Assembly: GCA_951812955.1 (NCBI GenBank)
Contig: OX638340.1
Span: 1,152,001-1,216,000, forward strand
Direction of reading: 5' to 3'
Origin: an uncultured Gemmatimonadota bacterium
GTDB lineage: Bacteria; JAAXHH01
DNA length: 64,000 nt
A program made the translations under genes and the position numbers. Below are positions 21,440 through 33,516 of this stretch, piece by piece. The notes beneath the pieces are model-generated. The model saw only the letters and a list, made by a program, of their open reading frames with translations. It made no database searches and was not told the DNA's origin. Within the stretch, counting starts at the first letter, position 1; each line of letters begins with the position of its first letter.

Positions 21440-22888
21440 TCAATTCACATACGCGTTGTGGAACTCGATCCACTTCGGAAGGACTTCCTCGATTACTTCC
21501 CTGGGCGGCAGGAACGCGATCCTCAGGTGACTGGTGCCCGGTTGCTGTCCGAATCCTGCCCCGTTGACCGTGACCAGCCCGGTCCGATCCAGAAGTCCCA
21601 TACAATAATCGAAATCGTCCGTTCCGTCCGGCAGTCCGTCCAGCCGGGGGAACAGGTACATCGCCCCGGTCCGCCCGAAACAGGAAACGCCGTCCATATG
21701 ATCGAATCCCGCCCTTATCATGACCGCCTTGTCGTGGAGGTCTTCGAGGATCTTCCGCCGCTCATGCGTGAAACGGCGGTAGGGCGCCGTGTTCTCCGGC
21801 GGGGGATTGACCAGCAGGTACATCATCAACTGCCCGACCGTGTTCGAGCAGATATTCACCGAAGCCTGTTTAAGCACGAGGTCCGTGAATGACAGATCGG
21901 TGTTCCGAATGCGCGGAGCGTTTCTGATCTCGAGGTATCCGCCCCGGTGGCCGCACTCGCCGTAGAATCCCTTCGAGGTGCTGTGGACGCTGAAGAGCGG
22001 TACGTCGCCCCGGCCCAGCACCCGGGCGAAGGATACGAATCCCGCGTCCGCGTCGTAGACGTTTTCCTGGTAGACCTCGTCGGCGATGATGGCCAGGTCG
22101 TTGTCCCCTGCGAAAGCGATGACCTCCCTGACGGTCTCTTCGTCCAGTACGGCGCCCGTCGGGTTTCCCGGATTGATGACCACCATGGCCTTGACGGTCA
22201 CGCCGCGCTTCCGCGCGCCTTCCAAAGACGAATCCAGCAGATTCCGGTCCATGGCCCAGCCCGATTCCTCGTCGAGGAAATAGTCGACCTGCGTGCCGCC
22301 GCAACGCTTGATGGCGGCGGAATACAGCGGATACTGAGGTATGGGAATCATGACGCCGTCGGATTCGTCGTCAATCAACAGGTCGATGACGTAACGCACC
22401 GCTTCGCTGGCGCCGTTGGTGATGAATATCTGTTCCGGATCGGAACGGGGAACAGAGCCACTGACCGCTCCGTCTCTCCGGTCGATAAATCCCGCCACGG
22501 CTTCCCGGATGAACCGCGGTCCGCTGCTGTCCGAGTAGGCGCCCATGCCGGTTTCCAACTGCGACAGGTAGTTTTCGCTGAGTTCGAGCACGTAATCGGA
22601 GTGGAAGTCGTCCCTTTCCAGTCCGTGCAGGTCAGCACCGTTGAACAGTGTTTTAAGTCGCCGTTCACGCTCGATTCGAATGGGGTGTTCGACCAGGCTC
22701 AGCACCTCCCGGTAGAAGGAGACGGGCTGCTGCCCAAGCGCCTGGGGATTGCCGAGGTTGCACGGAATGATGCGTCTGCCTTGTTGCTTCAGTTCGGCTG
22801 CCCGACTGGGAATCGGTCCCCGCACGGCGTACTCCATTTCGAGTATCCTTCGGTTGACCGTCATGTCCCGGGGCTTTATCGAACCCAT
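21440..22888 (-). CDS. Alanine aminotransferase (class I PLP aminotransferase, ALT-type)
   Basis: YAVRGPI, SKGFYGECGHRGGYLE and PLP-lysine context typical of ALT/AlaA. Confidence 0.8.
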   Translation of the reverse strand: MGSIKPRDMTVNRRILEMEYAVRGPIPSRAAELKQQGRRIIPCNLGNPQALGQQPVSFYREVLSLVEHPIRIERERRLKTLFNGADLHGLERDDFHSDYVLELSENYLSQLETGMGAYSDSSGPRFIREAVAGFIDRRDGAVSGSVPRSDPEQIFITNGASEAVRYVIDLLIDDESDGVMIPIPQYPLYSAAIKRCGGTQVDYFLDEESGWAMDRNLLDSSLEGARKRGVTVKAMVVINPGNPTGAVLDEETVREVIAFAGDNDLAIIADEVYQENVYDADAGFVSFARVLGRGDVPLFSVHSTSKGFYGECGHRGGYLEIRNAPRIRNTDLSFTDLVLKQASVNICSNTVGQLMMYLLVNPPPENTAPYRRFTHERRKILEDLHDKAVMIRAGFDHMDGVSCFGRTGAMYLFPRLDGLPDGTDDFDYCMGLLDRTGLVTVNGAGFGQQPGTSHLRIAFLPPREVIEEVLPKWIEFHNAYVN

Positions 22889-23057
22889 CCCGCAAACTCC
22901 ATTGCCAGATTCTACGTGGTCATACTGCGAACGCTACAATTTCAATCTATAGCGATCGGCAGGGAAATACAATAGGAGCGCTGTGTCAGAGGATCAATTA
23001 TAGAATAAGGTAGGTATGGGCGCTAAGTCCGCATCGTTCTTCCATGTGATCGAACTA

Positions 23058-25418
23058 TTACGCAAGATCGGGACCGGCCAGTCGGTAACCGACCCGAGGC
23101 TCGTTAGAGATGTACGTCGGGCTTCCCGCATCATCACCCAGTTTGGAGCGGAGTTTCTTCACGAAAGCATGCACAACCCGGTTGTCTTCGGAACTTCCGG
23201 ACCGCCATACGTTGCGCAACAAATAGTCGTAAGTCACGACGCGGCCGGCGTTGGTCGCAAGCACGCGTAGTAAATCGTATTCGGTTGCGGTCAGTTTCAA
23301 AGGTTCGTCCGCCAGGGTCACCCGTCGTTGCTCGAAGTCGATGACGAGATCAATCACCCGGTAGGGCTCGGGTGGACCGGCATGCCTGCGAAGCGCCGAC
23401 TGGATTCTGGCCACCAGTTCCGTAGGCGAATACGGCTTGACCACATAATCGGCTGCTCCGATCTCCAGAGCTTTGGCAATTGTCTCGTCTCTGCCATACG
23501 CGGACAGGAAGATAACCGGCTGATCAGCCATGGCCGGCACGCTTTGCATCAGTTCGATACCGTCCGCATCCGGGAGCAGCAAATCCAGTAGTACCAGATC
23601 CGGTTGACGTGATTTAATCAGACCGGGTACGTCATTGGGATTGCCGGTCACCAGCGCCTCGAAACTCGCGTCCTCGAGTATACCCCGTATCTGTTCCAAC
23701 ACCTGTGGGTCGTCATCCACCACAAGGACCAGCGGCTTCTGCCGATTTCCCGTGTCCGGGAGTCTTTGCCTCATGAAGGAGGGCAATTCGATCATGGCCG
23801 GCGCTTCATCCGCCACAGGTATCGTAAATGTAAAACGTGTGCCTAGACCGTTACCTTCGCTCTCGACCCAGATACGGCCGCCATGCGCCTCGACAAGTCC
23901 CTTGCAGATGGCCAGTCCGAGGCCCTCCCCAACCCCGCGTCCGCGATCTTCCCGTCCGCTTCGGGCAAACTTGCTAAAAATGTGCGGCAGACGCTCTGCG
24001 GGAATCCCTCGCCCTTCATCGACTACCGAAACCGCTACGAACAACCCCTCGCGTTGCGCAAGTACCTGTATGACTGACGATTCTGGCGCGTGGCGGGTAG
24101 CGTTGGACAACAGGTTGATCAGGACCTGAACTATGCGCTGCCGGTCCACCCGCACCCGAGGCAGATCAGTAGGCAGGTCAATACTGATCTGGATACGGCT
24201 CTCACTACTGAGAAACATATTCCGAGCCTGGTCCACAATGGCAGCCAGATCCGAGTACTCGGGGGATACCGACAGCGATCCCGTCTCGATATGAGCCGCG
24301 TCCAGCAGGTCGCTGATCAACTGTCTCATGTGATCGGCCTGGTCGTTGATTATGCGGAAAAGCTGCCGGGTCTCGGCCGGGTCCAGCACCGACGGGGTCT
24401 CTAGCACGGTGGCGGCACAGCCCTTTACAGAAGTCAAGGGAGCCCTGAGCTCGTGACTCACCAAGCTTAAAAACTCGGCCCGCATTCTTTCAAGTTCTTC
24501 TATCGGCGTCATATCCTGTAAGGTAACAACCAAGGACTCGACTTCTTCCTGCGGTGAACGTATAGGCGTTGCGTTGACCAGTATCGTGACCTTCCGGCCG
24601 TCCGGAACCTCAAGTACGATCTCTTCGGCGCGAACCGGTGTGGCCTCGTTCAACGCCTCAACCAATGCGGACTTCTCCAGGGCAATCGCACGCCCGTCGG
24701 TTCGCCGCGCACTCATCACGTCCAACAAATCCTCGGCGGTGTTTCCCGGTGTCATGAGATTGCCGACAATGCGTCGCGTCTCCTGGTTAAGGGATACCAA
24801 CTTGCCACTTTGGGCGTCAATTACCACTACACCAACCGGAGACGTGTCTATCAGGGCTTCCAGGTCGGCCCTGACCCGTCGCTCATCGCCGTGCCTGCGG
24901 GCGTTTGCGATCGCCGCCCCGGCCTGCGAAGCGAACAGCGACAGCATCCCTTCATCCTCACCCGTAAACCCCTGATCGGACACTTTTCCAACGAGACTGA
25001 ATATGCCAACATGCACGCCTTGATGCCGCATGGGCATGCCCAGGTAACAACCAGCCAGTACAGGGTCCGCCGGGAACCCTAACGAGGCAAGGTGAGTCGC
25101 TAGTTCCTTGAGCCTTAGTGGACGTTGGACCTGTCGAAAAAACTCCCACAGATCGTACCCAAAAGGTAGATCTGTCAGCCGCCTGTATTCTTCGGGGCTC
25201 ACGCCATATGTGACAAAATCCTGCAGGCTGCCCGTTGCATCCATTGTACAGATTGCGCCGTATTCCGCATTGGTCAACAAGCATGCGTTTTCCACGACCT
25301 CGTGCAAGACGGTTTTGATATCAAGGCTTTCGCTGATACGCACACTTGCCTGACTTAGACCTAAGAATCGCTCCTTGAGCGATTGTATCTCCGCTTGCAA
25401 CTCTTCGATTTTGGACAT
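23058..25418 (-). CDS. Fused sensor histidine kinase-response regulator (GAF-PAS-HisKA-HATPase-REC-OmpR wHTH)
   Basis: H-box FLSLVSHELRAPLT, N/G boxes, receiver LVVDDDP...DLVLLDLLLPD and OmpR-type C-terminus (TATEYDLL...VGYRL). GC is lower than the flanks. Confidence 0.8.
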   Translation of the reverse strand: MSKIEELQAEIQSLKERFLGLSQASVRISESLDIKTVLHEVVENACLLTNAEYGAICTMDATGSLQDFVTYGVSPEEYRRLTDLPFGYDLWEFFRQVQRPLRLKELATHLASLGFPADPVLAGCYLGMPMRHQGVHVGIFSLVGKVSDQGFTGEDEGMLSLFASQAGAAIANARRHGDERRVRADLEALIDTSPVGVVVIDAQSGKLVSLNQETRRIVGNLMTPGNTAEDLLDVMSARRTDGRAIALEKSALVEALNEATPVRAEEIVLEVPDGRKVTILVNATPIRSPQEEVESLVVTLQDMTPIEELERMRAEFLSLVSHELRAPLTSVKGCAATVLETPSVLDPAETRQLFRIINDQADHMRQLISDLLDAAHIETGSLSVSPEYSDLAAIVDQARNMFLSSESRIQISIDLPTDLPRVRVDRQRIVQVLINLLSNATRHAPESSVIQVLAQREGLFVAVSVVDEGRGIPAERLPHIFSKFARSGREDRGRGVGEGLGLAICKGLVEAHGGRIWVESEGNGLGTRFTFTIPVADEAPAMIELPSFMRQRLPDTGNRQKPLVLVVDDDPQVLEQIRGILEDASFEALVTGNPNDVPGLIKSRQPDLVLLDLLLPDADGIELMQSVPAMADQPVIFLSAYGRDETIAKALEIGAADYVVKPYSPTELVARIQSALRRHAGPPEPYRVIDLVIDFEQRRVTLADEPLKLTATEYDLLRVLATNAGRVVTYDYLLRNVWRSGSSEDNRVVHAFVKKLRSKLGDDAGSPTYISNEPRVGYRLAGPDLA

Positions 25419-26091: not shown

Positions 26092-27147
26092 ATGAATCGT
26101 GTTCTAGTCGTGCATGCGCTGTCGTTGGTGATCGGTTGTGCGGGTGACCAGGGACCGATTGGCCCCGGGGGGGAACAAGGTCCATAGAGCCTTCAATGTT
26201 CAGAGGGACCGGTAGGGCCGCAGGGCACGCGGGGCGAGCAAGGGCCGCAGGGAATAGCCGGGCCGACCGACCCACAGGGCTCACAGGGTCCACAGGGGAC
26301 TGGCGCGCCGCTGAATTGGGCAGACGTGATCGAGGAGGGGAACCTCTACGACGCGGTCTATGTGGTCGGTGTCTAGACTGAGAGTTACTGGACCATTATC
26401 GGCACGGCTTTTGCAGCCTACTACGACGACAAGATGTGGACCAACGCCCACGTCGTAAAGCGTGCTATGGAGGAAGCGCAGAATAAGATTGGCGAAGTGC
26501 GAACATTCGTGGCGCGAGCAGGAGAGCGGTTTGTGGATGAAGGGCAAGGTCCGGGATTTATCTACTGGAACGGCGCTATCATCCACGAAGACTATGATGC
26601 TGAGCAGTATCCCCATGACAGCCCCGACGTCGCCCTGCTCCGCCTGGAGGAGAATGTTACTGGACCACTGCCCGAGCTCTTGCCGCGTGAATTCAGCCAG
26701 GACCTGCGCATAGGCCAGCCGCAGGGAATATTGGGATATCCAGGCGGGCTGGGACATTAAACCCTCGAGCTCGTATTGCTGACGTTCAAAGAAGGCACGC
26801 TGTCTGCGCTGCGGCCCTTCCTGAACGAGAGCTTTGACGGAACCAATACGGGGATGTTGCTGCACTACAATTTCCTTACAGAAGGCGGGACACGCGGGAG
26901 CCCCGTCTTCGATCACAACGGTTACATCGTAGGCATCAATTTCGCCGGTCTTGATAAAGAAATCGAGTTCGGAGAGGAACTCGTCACGATTGAAACGTCG
27001 CACCAATTCGGCATACACGTGGAGGCTCTTTGGCAAATGATCGACCAGGTTGGCGGAGCGCCGGCCGTCGCCGCGCGCGTTACGGTACCGGAAGGATCTT
27101 ACGAGCCATTTCCGGCCGGCTGGATTGGTGAGACTATCGCGCCCTAG
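26092..27147 (+). pseudogene. Collagen-like S1 (V8/trypsin-like) serine-peptidase lipoprotein gene interrupted by three in-frame stops
   Basis: A single frame has TAG 26185, TAG 26374 and TAA 26758 with no frameshift. It reads lipobox VIGCAG, G-x-y collagen triplets, then protease motifs TNAHVV, DVALLRL and GGTRGSPVF (nucleophile Ser replaced by Arg). Confidence 0.6.
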
Positions 27148-27210: not shown

Positions 27211-27762
27211 ATGAGATCCGTCCTATTTATCGTTGCCATGCTGGTTTTCACAGCCTGCGAGGGCAAGGTAGGACCGGCTGGACCGGCTGGACCGGCTGGA
27301 TCAGCCGGTCCACAGGGTGTAAAGGGCGATACCGGGTCGCTGGGACCGAAGGGTGACAGTGGTGATCCTGGACCGGCAGGGCCGGCAGGGCCGGCAGGAC
27401 CGCAGGGGCCGGCAGGACCGCAGGGGCCGACAGGGCCGGCAGGACCGGAAGGCGGTGGTACCACGGAGCCGCCACCACCACCGCCGGAGCCGCCACCACC
27501 ACCGCCGCCACCGCCGCCACCGCCGCCACCGCCGGCCGGCGACGGAGCCTGCGTAGCCGGGTTGGTCGTGAATCCGGGTGAGAGTTGCGTTTACAATGGC
27601 TACGACTTTTCCGTTAGTTCCGAAGGCAGAGGGCGCATTGCCTTTTTCTCCGCGGGAAGCGGTATAGATGCAAGGGGTACCACGATCAACGGCGTACTTT
27701 GGAACTTCCATGCAACCCGAAACAGTGGCAGTAGCAGTTGGACCATTCATTCTGCTGATTGA
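27211..27762 (+). CDS. Collagen-like lipoprotein with polyproline linker
   Basis: Signal plus Cys, about 25 G-x-y triplets, a run of about 25 Pro, then a C-terminal globular domain. Confidence 0.7.
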
Positions 27763-28305: not shown

Positions 28306-29050
28306 TTAAACAGGTGGTTTCATTTGCTCGAACTCGACCGAAGGCGTGTAGCTTAAGGCGGGGTGCAAGCGTTTACGATTGTAGAGCTTGTAGATGAAGT
28401 AACCGATGCGTGATCGGGCTTCTTCGAGGGATTCGTACTCGTAGAGATAGCCCTCCTCGTATTTGAGCGTCCTGATGAAGCGCTCTGCTTTGGCGTTGTC
28501 ATAGGGGTTATCGCGCCGGCTCATGCTGATTCTAATACCGGCCTTTTTGTGGGTTTCGACATAGGCTTTGGAGGCGTACTACACGTCCCGGTCGGAGTGA
28601 TGTACCAAGCCCTTTGGTACCGATCTGGATGCCAGGGCGCTGTCCAAGGCATGAAGGGCAAGACCTGCATCGAGGGTTCGATTCAAAGCCCAGCCGATGC
28701 ATTTTCTGCTGCAGGCGTCAAGGACCACGGCCAGATAGATCCATTCGCCGGCCAGGCGGATGTAGGTGATTTCGGTCCCCCAGAGTTGATTGACTCCGAT
28801 TGTGTTCAGTTCCGGAACCAATTGGCGTAGAAGGCACGATCAGGGTTCGAGTCGGTGGTCGTTACGAAGACCTTGAGTCGCAGGGCAATCCGGTTGTCTT
28901 CGTACATGAGGCGCAGGACGCGCTTATGGTTTCAACAGGTAGAAAAGGCGTCTGAGTGTCCTAGTCAAAGAACGGTAGCCTTAGGAAGACCAGGTAAGGG
29001 AGAGCTTGTGTATCATGTCCCGCAGTTCAAGGGCCGGATCCATACGGCCT
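28306..29050 (-). mobile_element. IS3-family transposase OrfB remnant (pseudogene, 5'-truncated)
   Basis: rve integrase-core motifs (NQLWGTEITYI, YLAVVLD, DNAKAERFIRTLK), broken by stops and frameshifts. OrfA is absent. Confidence 0.7.
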
Positions 29051-29388
29051 CAGAGACCGAGGTAGTAGCTGGATCGACCGATCGAGAGCGTCCTGCGAAT
29101 CCGGGTGACCACGAGACCGTCTACTGAGGGCGTAATTGGTGGCGCCACCTGTGAATCCGCTTGGGATGAACCTAGTGTTCCGCGGCTGACTGAATGATAG
29201 ATTTACCCGAATCGGCTTCCTAAAGGACTTGGAGCTTGAACTCACGGGTGAACAGACGGCGTTTCAGAGTCATGAAGCGCCTCCTCGATCGGTAGGAAGC
29301 TTAACTCTGTCTCCCAGTCAAGGGTGCGGTACGATTTAACGTAAACTGACAGATGAGCCTGCAACAATCAACAAGAGGCAAGGAAACC

Positions 29389-32181
29389 ATGCCCTTGATT
29401 TACATTCGTGCCATACCCGTGTTCATATGTCTTGTATTGTTCACTCTGACCACCTGCGGCAAGGACAGCCCCACCAGACCGAAGCCGCCAGATCCACCGC
29501 CGCCAGTAGTGCCCGTAGCCACCCGCATTGACATCACTCCGCCTTCTGCCACGTTGAACTCGGTTGGCCAGACTATTCAACTCAACGCAAGAGTCCTGGA
29601 TCAGAACAACGCGCCAATTAGTGGCGCAGCCGTGACATGGACCAGCAGCGACAACGGCGTGGCTACCGTCACCGTCCAGGGGTTGGTAACTGCGGTAAAG
29701 AACGGCACGGCACGGATCACAGCCCGATCAGGTAATATCTCTGCAAATGCGAATGTCACTGTGTTACAGACAGCCGGTAGTATCGTTATCGAATCGGCTA
29801 TGACGACGCTAACAGCCATCGGTCAGACCGTCCAGCTGACGGCGAATGTACTGGATCGTAATGACAAGCCGGTAGCCGGTGCTGTCGTGACCTGGACGAG
29901 CAGCGATGCGTCCGTAGCAACGGTCAACGAACAGGGGTTGGTGACGGCCGTCAAGAGTGGCGGCACACGGATCACGGCACGGTCAGGCAGCGCCTCAGCA
30001 GGCATCACTGTTACGGTAATGCAGTCGGTAGCAAGTATCGTGATAGAGCCTGAGATGGCGACGCTCATGTCGATCGGCGAGACCGTGCAACTCACCGCCA
30101 CCGTTCTAGATCAGAACCGGCAACCAGTAGATGATGCCGTCGTCACCTGGCAGAGCAGCGATGAGGAAGTGGCCACCGTAAGCGCTGCAGGACTCGTTAC
30201 CGCCATCGGCAACGGCATGGCAACTGTCACCGCCAGATCAGGCAACGCCTCGCAGACGGCAACCTTGACTGTGACGATCCTTGATACACGACGCGACCGA
30301 GAAGCCCTTGCCGCACTGTATCATAGTACGGATGGACCGAATTGGACCAACAACACGAACTGGCTGAGCGATGCGCCTCTAGACTCATGGCATGGCATAG
30401 GAACTACCACACTTGGAGAGGTTCAGTATCTGAATTTGGGGGAGAACAATCTCCACGGCATCATCCCACCTGAAATAGGCAAACTTCAAAAACTGACAGT
30501 ACTGGCGCTCTACGGCAATAGTTTGACCGGCAACATCCCGCCCGAAATCGGACAGTTACAGAACCTGACAGATCTTAATCTCGGCGACAACGAGTTGAGC
30601 GGCCCTATCCCCACTGAAATAGGGCAACTTCAAAAACTGACAGGTCTTACTCTCGCCGGCAACCAGTTGAGCGGTCCAATCCCCCCTAATATAGTGCAAT
30701 TGCTGGAACTAAAATTCCTGTGGCTCGGCGGCAACCAGTTGAGCGGTCCTATCCCCACTGAAATAGGGCAACTTCAAAAACTGACAACTCTATGGCTAGG
30801 CGCTAATCAACTGACCGGCAACATCCCGCCCGAAATCGGACAGTTGCGAAACCTTACTGACCTAAATCTTGATTTTAACCAGTTGTCTGGATCCATACCC
30901 CCCTTAATCGGACAACTACAGCATCTGAAATTCCTGCGGCTGAATGGCAACCAGTTGACTGGATCCATTCCGCCCGAAATCGGACAGCTTAGCATGCTTA
31001 GGTTCTTGAACATGGCCTTCAATCCCAATCTTTCGGGGCCATTACCGGTAACAATCACCTCTCTTTCCAACATGGAATCCCTGAGTTTGCACTACACTCA
31101 AGTATGTATTCCTCCTACCGCCCAATTCCAGTCATGGTTAGACGGGATAGAAAACATAAGAGGCGATATTTCTAGCTGTCCAGGGCCAGAGGGACCAGTG
31201 GAACCGGAAGAACCGGAAGAACCGGAAATGCCGCCTCCTGTCGGAGAGCGTCTGGACGTGAGGATTGTTTATTTTGTTCCTGCAAATCATACTGGATACC
31301 CGAACATAGATGCCAAGATAGATTCGTTGGTCAACATCGTCAAATTGACTTATGCGGAGATATTTGAATTTCATGGCTTCGGCGATAGAACCTTTCAGCA
31401 CGAGCAAAATGCGGATGGCACGGCCAGGGTATATCATGTGAAGGGCCAATACGATGGCGAATACTATTCCAGCGAAACATTTTTTAAGGTTATACATACC
31501 GAATTGGAACAGATATTCGATTTAGAATCGAATATTTACTGGGTCGTATTGGATGCTATCGATGCAACTGTAGATGGTTATTGCGGGCAAGGGTATGGTG
31601 ATCTTCCTGAGGGCGGCGCGTTTTTAATACCCGGACCAAACGACTACTGGTTGGAGGATCGCGGGTGGAGTTGTTTCAACCCATCAGTTGCATCCCACGA
31701 AATCGGACATTCCTTTGGTCTAACCCATGACCTGCTCAGAGACGAAGTGCGTGTCGAGTCCTCATATCAAGATGACTGGATGATTACTTCGTATTGTGCC
31801 GCCGAATGGATGTCGGTACATCCATTCTTCACCGGCGAACCAACCACGGGGAATGACAATGAGGGTGAAATAAGTCTAAGGTCGATTTCTGATGCTTCAT
31901 CCGAGACTATCCGCCTGGTTTTCGATGTGAGCGACCCCGATATGCTGCACCAGGCTCAACTTCTTGATAGAAACGGAGAAACGATAGCCTACCGTGGATT
32001 GGAAGGCGAAAGCGCTACCGTTGTGTTTGAAACCGACCAGGTATCCTACGGCGATCAGATCTTGTTACGAACTATAGATAAACGTGCCTTTGTTGTTGAA
32101 GGCAAGTTCATTATAGATCGAGATGGGCCTATAACAGTAAGACAATTACAAACGGGGCGACCCTTCAAGCCACAGTATTAA
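29389..32181 (+). CDS. Surface lipoprotein: 4 x Big_2 Ig-like domains + ~9 plant-type LRRs + C-terminal matrixin-like zinc metalloprotease domain
   Basis: Lipobox LTTCGK and a four-times repeated Big_2 pattern (VATVxxxGLVTAVxxGxARITARSG). There are 24-aa LRRs (LxxNxLxGxIPxEIGQLQxLT) and HEIGHSFGLTHD (HExxHxxGxxH). The start is trimmed to Met 29389. Confidence 0.75.
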   Translation: MPLIYIRAIPVFICLVLFTLTTCGKDSPTRPKPPDPPPPVVPVATRIDITPPSATLNSVGQTIQLNARVLDQNNAPISGAAVTWTSSDNGVATVTVQGLVTAVKNGTARITARSGNISANANVTVLQTAGSIVIESAMTTLTAIGQTVQLTANVLDRNDKPVAGAVVTWTSSDASVATVNEQGLVTAVKSGGTRITARSGSASAGITVTVMQSVASIVIEPEMATLMSIGETVQLTATVLDQNRQPVDDAVVTWQSSDEEVATVSAAGLVTAIGNGMATVTARSGNASQTATLTVTILDTRRDREALAALYHSTDGPNWTNNTNWLSDAPLDSWHGIGTTTLGEVQYLNLGENNLHGIIPPEIGKLQKLTVLALYGNSLTGNIPPEIGQLQNLTDLNLGDNELSGPIPTEIGQLQKLTGLTLAGNQLSGPIPPNIVQLLELKFLWLGGNQLSGPIPTEIGQLQKLTTLWLGANQLTGNIPPEIGQLRNLTDLNLDFNQLSGSIPPLIGQLQHLKFLRLNGNQLTGSIPPEIGQLSMLRFLNMAFNPNLSGPLPVTITSLSNMESLSLHYTQVCIPPTAQFQSWLDGIENIRGDISSCPGPEGPVEPEEPEEPEMPPPVGERLDVRIVYFVPANHTGYPNIDAKIDSLVNIVKLTYAEIFEFHGFGDRTFQHEQNADGTARVYHVKGQYDGEYYSSETFFKVIHTELEQIFDLESNIYWVVLDAIDATVDGYCGQGYGDLPEGGAFLIPGPNDYWLEDRGWSCFNPSVASHEIGHSFGLTHDLLRDEVRVESSYQDDWMITSYCAAEWMSVHPFFTGEPTTGNDNEGEISLRSISDASSETIRLVFDVSDPDMLHQAQLLDRNGETIAYRGLEGESATVVFETDQVSYGDQILLRTIDKRAFVVEGKFIIDRDGPITVRQLQTGRPFKPQY

Positions 32182-32590
32182 GTCGTAACATCATTTGCTC
32201 GAACGCGGCCGGTGGTGTGTAGCCTAACACTGATGGTAGATCGGACCACATGACAAAGAACCCGGTCTTCGTCGGTGATCCACTCGCTCCAGGACCCCGG
32301 ATAGAGCACGGCGTCACCCAGGCCCGCGTGGGCAATGGCGAGCAGGTTGTGGCAGGCCGAGACCCCTGAACCGCAGTAGTTTATGGCGCGCTCCACGGGG
32401 ATACCTGCGAGCAAACCCTCGTATCTCTGCCTCAGTTCCTCAGGCGCCCGAAAGCATCCGTCTTCCCCGAGATTCTCATCGAAAGACGCGCACCGCGTCG
32501 ACCATTGAGAACCGCGCGTCGATCACGCGCCAGTCCGGATCCCGGTGATGGCGGTGCAGCGTCTGAACGTCGATCAGCGTGGTTTGCATG
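32181..32590 (-). pseudogene. Rhodanese (SseA-like sulfurtransferase) remnant with internal deletion and frameshift, abutted by an IS3 tail fragment
   Basis: The N-terminus ...RVIDARF and C-terminus INYCGSGVSAC...YPGSWSEW are present but about 170 aa of middle are missing. An IS3 C-terminal fragment (LGYTPPAAFEQM) lies at 32190-32237. Confidence 0.5.
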
Positions 32591-32639
32591 GCCGATCCAC
32601 GTGCCGGTGTATTCAGGCTTCTTTACCCGTTCTCTTCGT

Positions 32640-33480
32640 ATGTGAATTGGGAGGTAGCAATATCACTATACTGATGTTACCCCGTTTTCGTGGATGGTTT
32701 ACCATTTGGGATTCAGGCAGTTATCTTGAACCTCCTTTCGAAGTATATAGGTGAGAGGTATCCCCAAGGGAAGAGTGCCTTCTCCGGGTGTTGTAGAAGC
32801 CCGCGATGCACTGGAACTGGGCGAGTCTGGCGTCGGCCCTGGTTCCAAAGCACTTGCGATCGAGCAGTCCGCATTCCAGGCTGGTGAAGAAGCCCTCGCA
32901 CAGGGTATTGTCGTAGCAGTCGCCGACCGAACCCATCGAGGGTCTGACCGCGGCCTGCCTGCATTGATTGCCAATGGCCATCTGGGTGTATTGCAATCCC
33001 TGGCCGCTGTGGTGGATCACCGCGTGGGGTCTGTGCATTCCAAAAGGGTCATGCCGAGGGCGTCTGTGACCAGTTCGCTTCGCAGGTGGTTGGGTATGGG
33101 CCAACGCTTCTCAGGCTGCGGCCGGAACGTACGAGGTCGACCATCTGCTGGCGGAAGGCTGCCAGACAGGGGCCATGTAATTCGGGCAGGGCACGCTCCT
33201 TTCAACAAAAGAAGTTACATGTCCACTAAACCGGGTAAACTCCACCCAATTGGGGTCTTTAATCCCGGTCAAGTTTCTCAGGTTCCAGACCGTTCCCCAA
33301 ACAATTACTTGACGTTAAAAGCTTGCGAACAGTACTATGCAGTTAATCGTACGACTATATCCCCAACAAAGCTGGCAGTATTACCGGCCAACCTACTCTG
33401 TACGGCATTCAATTCGGCTGGATCATCAAATCTAGACCGAAATCTGAAAACGTCAACTTGGCTGATACACATGTTCGGTA
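32640..33480 (-). mobile_element. IS3-family transposase remnant (OrfB with frameshift)
   Basis: HHSGQGLQYT...SMGSVGDCYDNTLCEGFF...FYNTRRRHSSLG is a typical IS3 rve core, with a frame break near the C-terminus. Confidence 0.65.
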
Positions 33481-33516
33481 TCAGCGCCAATTCAACGGAA
33501 TCATGGGAGGCATGAT

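Follow-up and report, generated by a model that had tools for sequence, protein, structure and literature searches.

The window analysed here, a stretch of 64,000 nucleotides of contig OX638340.1 from an uncultured Gemmatimonadota bacterium, is tightly packed with genes except for its sole gene-poor stretch at 25.4-29.35 kb, in which the GC content falls to 0.50-0.58 from about 0.61. This patch contains a gene related to serine proteases (hereafter, the protease gene), very probably now a pseudogene, and the features of the locus are as follows.

23058-25418, minus strand: hybrid histidine kinase/response regulator, divergent, a conserved neighbour of the protease gene (Pfam, synteny)
26092-27147, plus strand: very probable whole pseudogene of a collagen-like Trypsin_2 (S1) lipoprotein, collinear in one frame with its intact homologues, which have 355-359 aa and are 67-68% identical
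26092-26139, plus strand: lipoprotein-type signal peptide predicted from its motif, lipobox V-I-G-C (Cys16); homologues have L-I-A-C or similar
26140-26307, plus strand: collagen G-x-y region of about 18 triplets (Pfam Collagen), with the first-position replacements G33S (26188-26190), G36C (26197-26199) and G60D (26269-26271)
26185-26187, plus strand: stop 1, TAG; homologues mostly have Gln (GPQG)
26374-26376, plus strand: stop 2, TAG; homologue codons GAG (L080, L001) or CAG (L002)
26401-26937, plus strand: Trypsin_2/chymotrypsin-fold protease domain (Pfam, PDB search, alignment), with His120 (26449-26451) and Asp179 (26626-26628) kept
26728-26781, plus strand: changes at conserved sites, T213I (ATA, 26728-26730) and P230L (CTG, 26779-26781) (codon alignment, family columns)
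26758-26760, plus strand: stop 3, TAA; homologue codons GAA (L080, L006) or GAG (L001-L003)
26893-26895, plus strand: former nucleophile codon, CGC (Arg268); AGC (Ser) in all six compared orthologues
26962-26967, plus strand: site of an in-frame deletion of 6 nt that sets the window copy apart from all six close orthologues, between GLDKEI and EFGEE (codon alignment)
27145-27147, plus strand: native terminator TAG at the conserved C-terminus of the family, after ETIAP (sequence and homologue alignment)
27211-27762, plus strand: intact gene of a collagen-like lipoprotein that has a poly-Pro linker, conserved as the downstream neighbour (Pfam, synteny)
28324-29300, minus strand: decayed IS3-family element with 5-6 in-frame stops and 2 frameshifts, its orfA C-terminus lost

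The protease gene reads as a single frame from its ATG, with 352 codons (351 plus the native TAG) and three internal stops only, as the initial annotation had described; the terminal codon, given there as TAA, is TAG. When four intact homologues were compared with the window by tblastn, each produced one HSP in frame +1, three of them covering 26092-27144 over their full length and the L085 orthologue placing its residues 3-356 at 26116-27144. Thus, the gene contains no frameshift, hidden or compensated. The description "zero frameshifts" is therefore right, whereas "zero indels" would be wrong, as the deletion near 26964/26965 removes two codons and is unique among seven aligned sequences. 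By plain arithmetic, a random frame of 352 codons with the same base composition should contain about 12 stops, and the homology, at E about 1e-153, excludes a chance open frame.

The lipoprotein signal, the collagen triplets and the S1-type domain with its catalytic His and Asp, all proposed from the sequence at first reading, were recovered in the analysis. At the motif level, the lipobox pattern [LVI][ASTVI][GAS]C is satisfied by MNRVLVVHALSLVIGC, with Cys16 conserved across the alignment. Pfam assigned residues 104-282 to Trypsin_2 (PF13365; E 3.5e-15, 57.4 bits against a cut-off of 27.6), with further matches to PF00089 (Trypsin; 25.7 bits against a cut-off of 20.6) and to the Collagen repeat. 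In a PDB sequence search, GGTRGSP aligned with the nucleophile motif GNSGGP in Deg1, and also with the V8/Esp glutamyl endopeptidases. The catalytic triad of the window copy is incomplete, His120 (TNAHV) and Asp179 (SPDVALL) being present and Ser268 being replaced by Arg. Among 108 homologues, the three catalytic columns hold His in 107, Asp in 108 and Ser in 107, and Gly occupies the columns of G33, G36 and G60 in 102-103, all three of which are lost in the window copy. A leave-one-out count showed that 5 of 47 near-invariant family columns are changed in the window copy, as compared with a median of 1 in the homologues. Judged by these residues, the window copy is a dead derivative of an S1/Trypsin_2 family member rather than an active member, and the earlier expectation of a pseudo-protease even upon read-through is borne out by the loss of the nucleophile.

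The residues of homologues at the stop positions, which the initial annotation had proposed to compare, proved to be sense in every intact orthologue. The column of stop 1 holds Gln in 52 of the 108 homologues and in all close orthologues, and from this agreement at the amino-acid level we infer a CAG>TAG change. For the other two stops, the homologue codons indicate that a G>T transversion from GAG or GAA is the most likely origin; the CAG/CAA transitions suggested originally would thus apply to stop 1 and most likely not to stops 2 and 3. Each of the tabulated lesions GAG>TAG, GAA>TAA, AGC>CGC and ACA>ATA is one nucleotide away from an orthologue state. The codon of T213I is ATA in the window and ACA or ACG in orthologues, and that of P230L is CTG as compared with CCT in the sister locus L080. 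The gene accordingly combines full-length homology to intact genes with three premature stops at positions where orthologues carry sense residues.

Stop usage in the window is standard. The 35 longest non-overlapping ORFs, all uninterrupted, end in TGA (21), TAA (9) or TAG (5), and on this usage a reassignment of the genetic code is rejected. The internal stops of the protease gene are of two types, both in use as terminators, instead of one recurring type that is rare as a terminator. No tRNA gene was found within the 64-kb window, and an Rfam scan of the whole window returned no RNA family, so that nothing there suggests a recoding element.

We found that the intact family is large. Among 5.8 billion proteins searched, 642 matched (best E 8e-153, 68% identity), and those of full length are uninterrupted. 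Typical members have 345-390 aa and consist of an N-terminal lipobox, a variable G-x-y run, a Trypsin_2 domain and a conserved C-terminal tail, ..WNGET.AP. The named sources of the homologues are metagenome-assembled genomes (MAGs) of Gemmatimonadota and Latescibacterota, to which a genome scan added MAGs of Spirochaetia, Chloroflexota/Dehalococcoidia and Longimicrobiales; by their isolate names, many of these MAGs apparently come from sponge or coral projects. The occurrence in at least four phyla hints that a host-interaction gene may have spread horizontally. The family is multi-copy (loci L001-L079), with four loci in OZ241920.1, two of which lie about 9 kb apart, and three each in OY843748.1, OZ250165.1 and CBDBDQ01. 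It also evolves fast, the pairwise omega being 0.17-0.33 as compared with 0.09-0.19 for neighbouring genes. One intact paralogue, P0064 (355 aa, GGTSGS motif), lies on a contig of 3,813,436 bp that is apparently shared with the kinase of the window. P0016, of 322 aa on a 47-kb ENA contig, is an intact family ORF with His>Tyr (TTAYV) and Ser>Asn (GGTNGSP) replacements, and may be a pseudo-protease by nature or may stand earlier in the course of decay.

The AlphaFold2 model of an intact homologue, P0001, had a pLDDT of 85.8 overall and about 95 across the protease domain. When it was compared with the PDB by Foldseek, the best matches were Deg1, DegP, HtrA1 and V8/Esp (E about 1e-11 and probability 1.00, at 16-22% identity), with a TM of about 0.7 on the catalytic domains of HtrA1, V8 or Esp, and the model is predicted to adopt the double beta-barrel chymotrypsin fold. 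These fold matches and the lipobox, G-x-y and Trypsin_2 architecture suggest that the ancestral product would have been an S1 serine peptidase with a lipid anchor and a collagen stalk, belonging to an uncharacterised subfamily. The intact homologues resemble the PA-clan S1 proteases with Trypsin_2 (PF13365), namely HtrA/DegP (S1C) and V8/Esp (S1B), in their predicted fold and in the canonical order of His, Asp and Ser in TNAHV, D-V-A-L-L and G-T-S-G-S-P. They differ from these proteases in having no PDZ domain, in their low identity to the solved structures, in the lipobox and collagen stalk at the N-terminus and in the C-terminal tail ..Y.PFP..WNGET..P, and the window copy differs further in its missing Ser nucleophile. 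In the variable length of the N-terminal G-x-y region and in its expected surface anchoring, the family is similar to Scl1/Scl2 of Streptococcus, Lcl of Legionella and BclA of Bacillus, and the weak NCBIfam and PDB matches to collagen-like surface proteins concern the repeat region only. In contrast to those proteins, it is anchored by a lipobox instead of LPXTG, its globular domain is a protease, and it scores about 40 bits against the cut-offs of 325-500 of their models. No curated NCBIfam model for the family as such was found, the collagen stretch alone giving a weak match.

The order of a divergent hybrid histidine kinase, the protease, the collagen-like lipoprotein and an LRR/Big_2 protein is conserved at loci L002, L003 and L004 and on two Petrosia ficiformis metagenome contigs, L085 and L086, which were located through a kinase sharing a 90%-identity cluster with that of the window. 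In all five, the protease is uninterrupted, with an ORF of 351-356 aa or more, and the syntenic orthologues carry the motifs GPQGLQG, PTGPEG and GG(T/N)SGSP. The closest protease at the DNA level is that of L080 (81% nucleotide and 78% amino-acid identity over the domain), which is intact except for a scaffold gap within the collagen repeats. Scans of genomes and metagenome contigs gave no match above 65-67% protein identity, and searches for exact copies of P0121, the kinase and the lipoprotein next to the protease were negative.

With 94% amino-acid identity in the kinase, the two sponge metagenome contigs seemed to be very close relatives of the window; this was rejected, as neighbouring genes have a dS of about 1. 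Since only the kinase is unusually similar, these contigs are unusable for dating the stops. The kinase region 22853-25252 is 92-97% identical in nucleotides to L085 and L086, with a dS of 0.14, whereas the aminotransferase and PhyH genes beside it are 72-83% identical, with a dS of 0.9-1.1. This sharp block of identity suggests that the sensor kinase may have been recombined or transferred recently between well-diverged symbiont lineages.

Downstream of the protease gene, the intact lipoprotein has about 21 G-x-y triplets. Its poly-Pro linker (27463-27540) is 27 residues long, and its small C-terminal domain, which contains Cys, gave no Pfam match. The C-terminal region is different in the L085 protein at the same position, suggesting that domains may be swapped behind a conserved signal and collagen stalk. 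The IS3 remnant, 1.2 kb downstream of the protease gene, retains an orfA part (29273-29130) with two in-frame stops and an orfB/rve part (29109-28324) with three to four in-frame stops and both frameshifts; one larger deletion removed the orfA C-terminus and the frameshift region, and the best plasmid homologues are rhizobial IS3 transposases of about 55% identity. A second rve-type remnant was observed at 33029-32766 (within 32191-33029, minus strand), the 3' end of which, 32191-32227, is 84% identical to 28320-28356. The two remnants have the same orientation and flank an LRR/Big_2/reprolysin-like gene (29353-32181, plus strand, GC 0.50), in what may be a composite-transposon-like arrangement. 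The LRR/Big_2 block is missing in L080, where the lipoprotein region joins sequence matching the window from 32671 onwards. The 254-aa plus-strand ORF at 32751-33515 has no Pfam match and overlaps the rve-type remnant, and is therefore probably spurious. Likewise, no Pfam match was obtained for a 251-aa ORF antisense to the protease gene (26281-27036, minus strand), which is likely spurious and for which an automatic annotator might report a hypothetical protein instead of the pseudogene.

To place the changes in the protease on their branches, the differences between the window and L080 were polarised with five outgroups. Because nucleotide polarisation with distant outgroups is noisy at third positions, we relied on amino-acid polarisation and on three-point Nei-Gojobori dN. 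The window lineage showed 29 derived amino-acid changes as compared with 10 for L080 (binomial P=0.003), and its branch dN was 0.078 as compared with 0.046, a ratio of 1.67 (bootstrap 95% CI 1.12-2.81) at a pairwise dS of 0.50. The dN ratio, the excess of derived replacements and the loss of Ser268, three Gly, T213 and P230 show that constraint is relaxed on the window lineage. On this branch, GC>AT changes outnumbered AT>GC changes by 42:12 (3.5:1), as compared with 24:15 on the sister branch, and seven of eight key lesions run in the GC>AT direction. Bacteria have a general AT mutational bias, which fits GC>AT lesions once selection is lifted. A special G>T hypermutation was also considered and rejected, the proportions of transversions and transitions being equal on the two branches. 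Assuming equal dS on both branches and taking the omega of the sister as the functional rate, we estimated a neutral phase of 0.039 (0.009-0.071) substitutions per site, equivalent to about 41 (10-75) substitutions in 1053 nt. The branch-wide omega on the window lineage is about 0.32, meaning that the neutral phase makes up a minority of the branch and that its duration is poorly constrained.

The combination of three stops with no frameshift had been called statistically odd. When all single substitutions of the repaired gene were enumerated, 3.8% (uniform spectrum) to 4.9% (AT-biased spectrum) were nonsense, so that about 41 neutral substitutions predict 1.6-2.0 stops, as compared with the three observed. 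Since the protein is rich in Gln and Glu, 100 of its 351 codons are one step from a stop, and the gene has only one homopolymer of at least 5 nt (G7). In pseudogenes of the M. tuberculosis complex, frameshifts are present in 66.5% and internal stops in 16.1% (PMC9676053), a ratio that gives (1/5)^3, about 0.01, for three stops without a frameshift. A cross-species regression from mutation-accumulation data, log uid = -1.56 + 0.91 log ubs (PMC4978911), implies about 0.1-0.2 indels per substitution; if about 70% of these are taken not to be multiples of three, about 3 frameshifts are expected at about 41 neutral substitutions, and the probability of none is about 0.05 (range 0.003-0.5). The nearby IS3 remnant, used as a local yardstick with its 5-6 stops and 2 frameshifts, gives P about 0.3. 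In neutral bacterial pseudogenes, lengths divisible by three are favoured among small deletions (PMC6054270), in agreement with the one 6-nt deletion of the protease gene. There is also a selection effect, in that a pseudogene in one frame is exactly what a reader without tools can spot. Three stops with no frameshift are thus mildly unusual for a pre-specified gene (P roughly 0.01-0.3) and lie within ordinary decay, with no special mechanism required. The oddity claimed at first persists under the published ratios (P about 0.01-0.1) and was overstated in view of the IS3 remnant, the Gln- and Glu-rich protein and the single homopolymer.

Taken together, it is highly probable that 26092-27147 is a unitary pseudogene that arose by ordinary decay of one orthologous copy of a multi-copy surface lipoprotein family. 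That the compared orthologues are intact, and that this copy combines the stops, Ser268Arg, the lost glycines, a faster dN and an AT bias, argue for a decayed gene; decay had been among the explanations listed in the initial annotation, and the sense codons of the intact orthologues and the relaxed constraint bear it out. Function would have been lost in this Gemmatimonadota lineage, after which the copy would have drifted neutrally. Ordinary AT-biased point mutation would have turned one Gln codon and two Glu/Gln codons into stops, and the same process would have changed AGC to CGC at the nucleophile and altered three collagen glycines and other invariant residues, with no frameshifting indel so far. 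No functional product would be expected, and at most a 31-residue signal-peptide fragment would be translated. The intact paralogue P0064 makes it plausible that redundancy permitted the loss, at least one working copy being apparently present on the same 3.81-Mb contig. This order of events, the neutrality since inactivation and redundancy as the reason for tolerance are what we infer from the comparison.

The window copy resembles bacterial unitary pseudogenes formed by nonsense mutation, as recognised by PGAP/Pseudofinder in Salmonella, the M. tuberculosis complex and the leaf-nodule symbionts of Burkholderia, in that a syntenic single-copy orthologue carries premature stops, with raised dN, an AT-biased spectrum and IS remnants nearby. 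Its deletion of a multiple of three belongs to a class over-represented in neutral bacterial pseudogenes (PMC6054270). The point against decay is that frameshifts usually outnumber nonsense changes among pseudogene lesions (PMC9676053), whereas this copy has three nonsense changes and no frameshift, which is a difference of degree only.

Among the alternative explanations, inactivation of a host-facing protease may itself have been selected in the symbiont lineage, through less host damage or recognition, with the later lesions being neutral. The multi-copy and fast-evolving nature of the family is in keeping with this, as are the neighbouring eukaryote-like LRR/Big_2 and collagen-like genes, which are typical of host interaction and make birth-and-death turnover plausible. 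However, the orthologues are intact in related symbionts, and a single loss in a single lineage cannot separate selection from drift, so that we consider adaptive loss unlikely. We hold it to be quite unlikely that the locus is a snapshot of birth-and-death turnover in an uncharacterised host-interaction family, in which selection favoured the inactivation of this copy, or in which the dead copy is still made as a surface protein with no catalytic role. That reading draws on the presence of three to four copies per genome and on a family common to sponge and coral symbionts of the Gemmatimonadota, Latescibacterota, Spirochaetia and Chloroflexota.

The stops could also be errors of sequencing, consensus or assembly, for example from mixed-strain polishing, in a gene that is really intact, as the initial annotation had allowed; the bases come from an uncultured MAG, for which searches gave no second assembly of the same strain. 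This is very improbable, since three nonsense changes and at least five radical changes at near-invariant sites within 1 kb form no error pattern, and the 6-nt deletion and the gene-wide excess of derived replacements come in addition. Such a density of radical changes is limited to the protease gene; random substitution errors at this level would wreck the neighbouring genes, yet these are long and intact. Long-read errors are mostly indels, yet the protease gene has no frameshifting indel. Polishing that corrects frames was rejected as a cause of the missing frameshifts, because the adjacent IS3 remnant keeps its two. Barely credible is the read-through or suppressor tRNA raised at first reading, by which the gene would still give a collagen-like surface protein of full length, catalytically dead and serving as a pseudo-protease in binding. 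It gains from a frame kept over 351 codons without a frameshift, from the retained His and Asp and from the intact P0016, which indicates that non-catalytic members may exist, but two stop types (TAG twice, TAA once) would both need suppression although TAG and TAA end 14 of the 35 long ORFs and the gene's own conserved C-terminus, the dN is accelerated with an AT-biased spectrum, and the replacement of three invariant collagen glycines would break the triple helix needed for binding. With the nucleophile also lost, even read-through would give no protease and no stable triple helix.

Ordinary decay of one gene copy therefore remains our preferred explanation of the locus. It makes the locus a routine pseudogene, a well-known kind of feature for which recoding, suppression or artefact is unneeded; the region deserves a "pseudo" flag, and the antisense ORF within it should not be called a gene. 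It also serves as a calibration point, in that nonsense lesions can outnumber frameshifts in a moderately GC-rich, AT-biased symbiont genome. Of more interest is a by-product of the analysis, an unstudied, multi-copy family of collagen-like S1 peptidases in sponge and coral symbionts, which is apparently fast-evolving and turning over. Should the locus indeed be a snapshot of such turnover, interest would lie with the family and not with the three stops.
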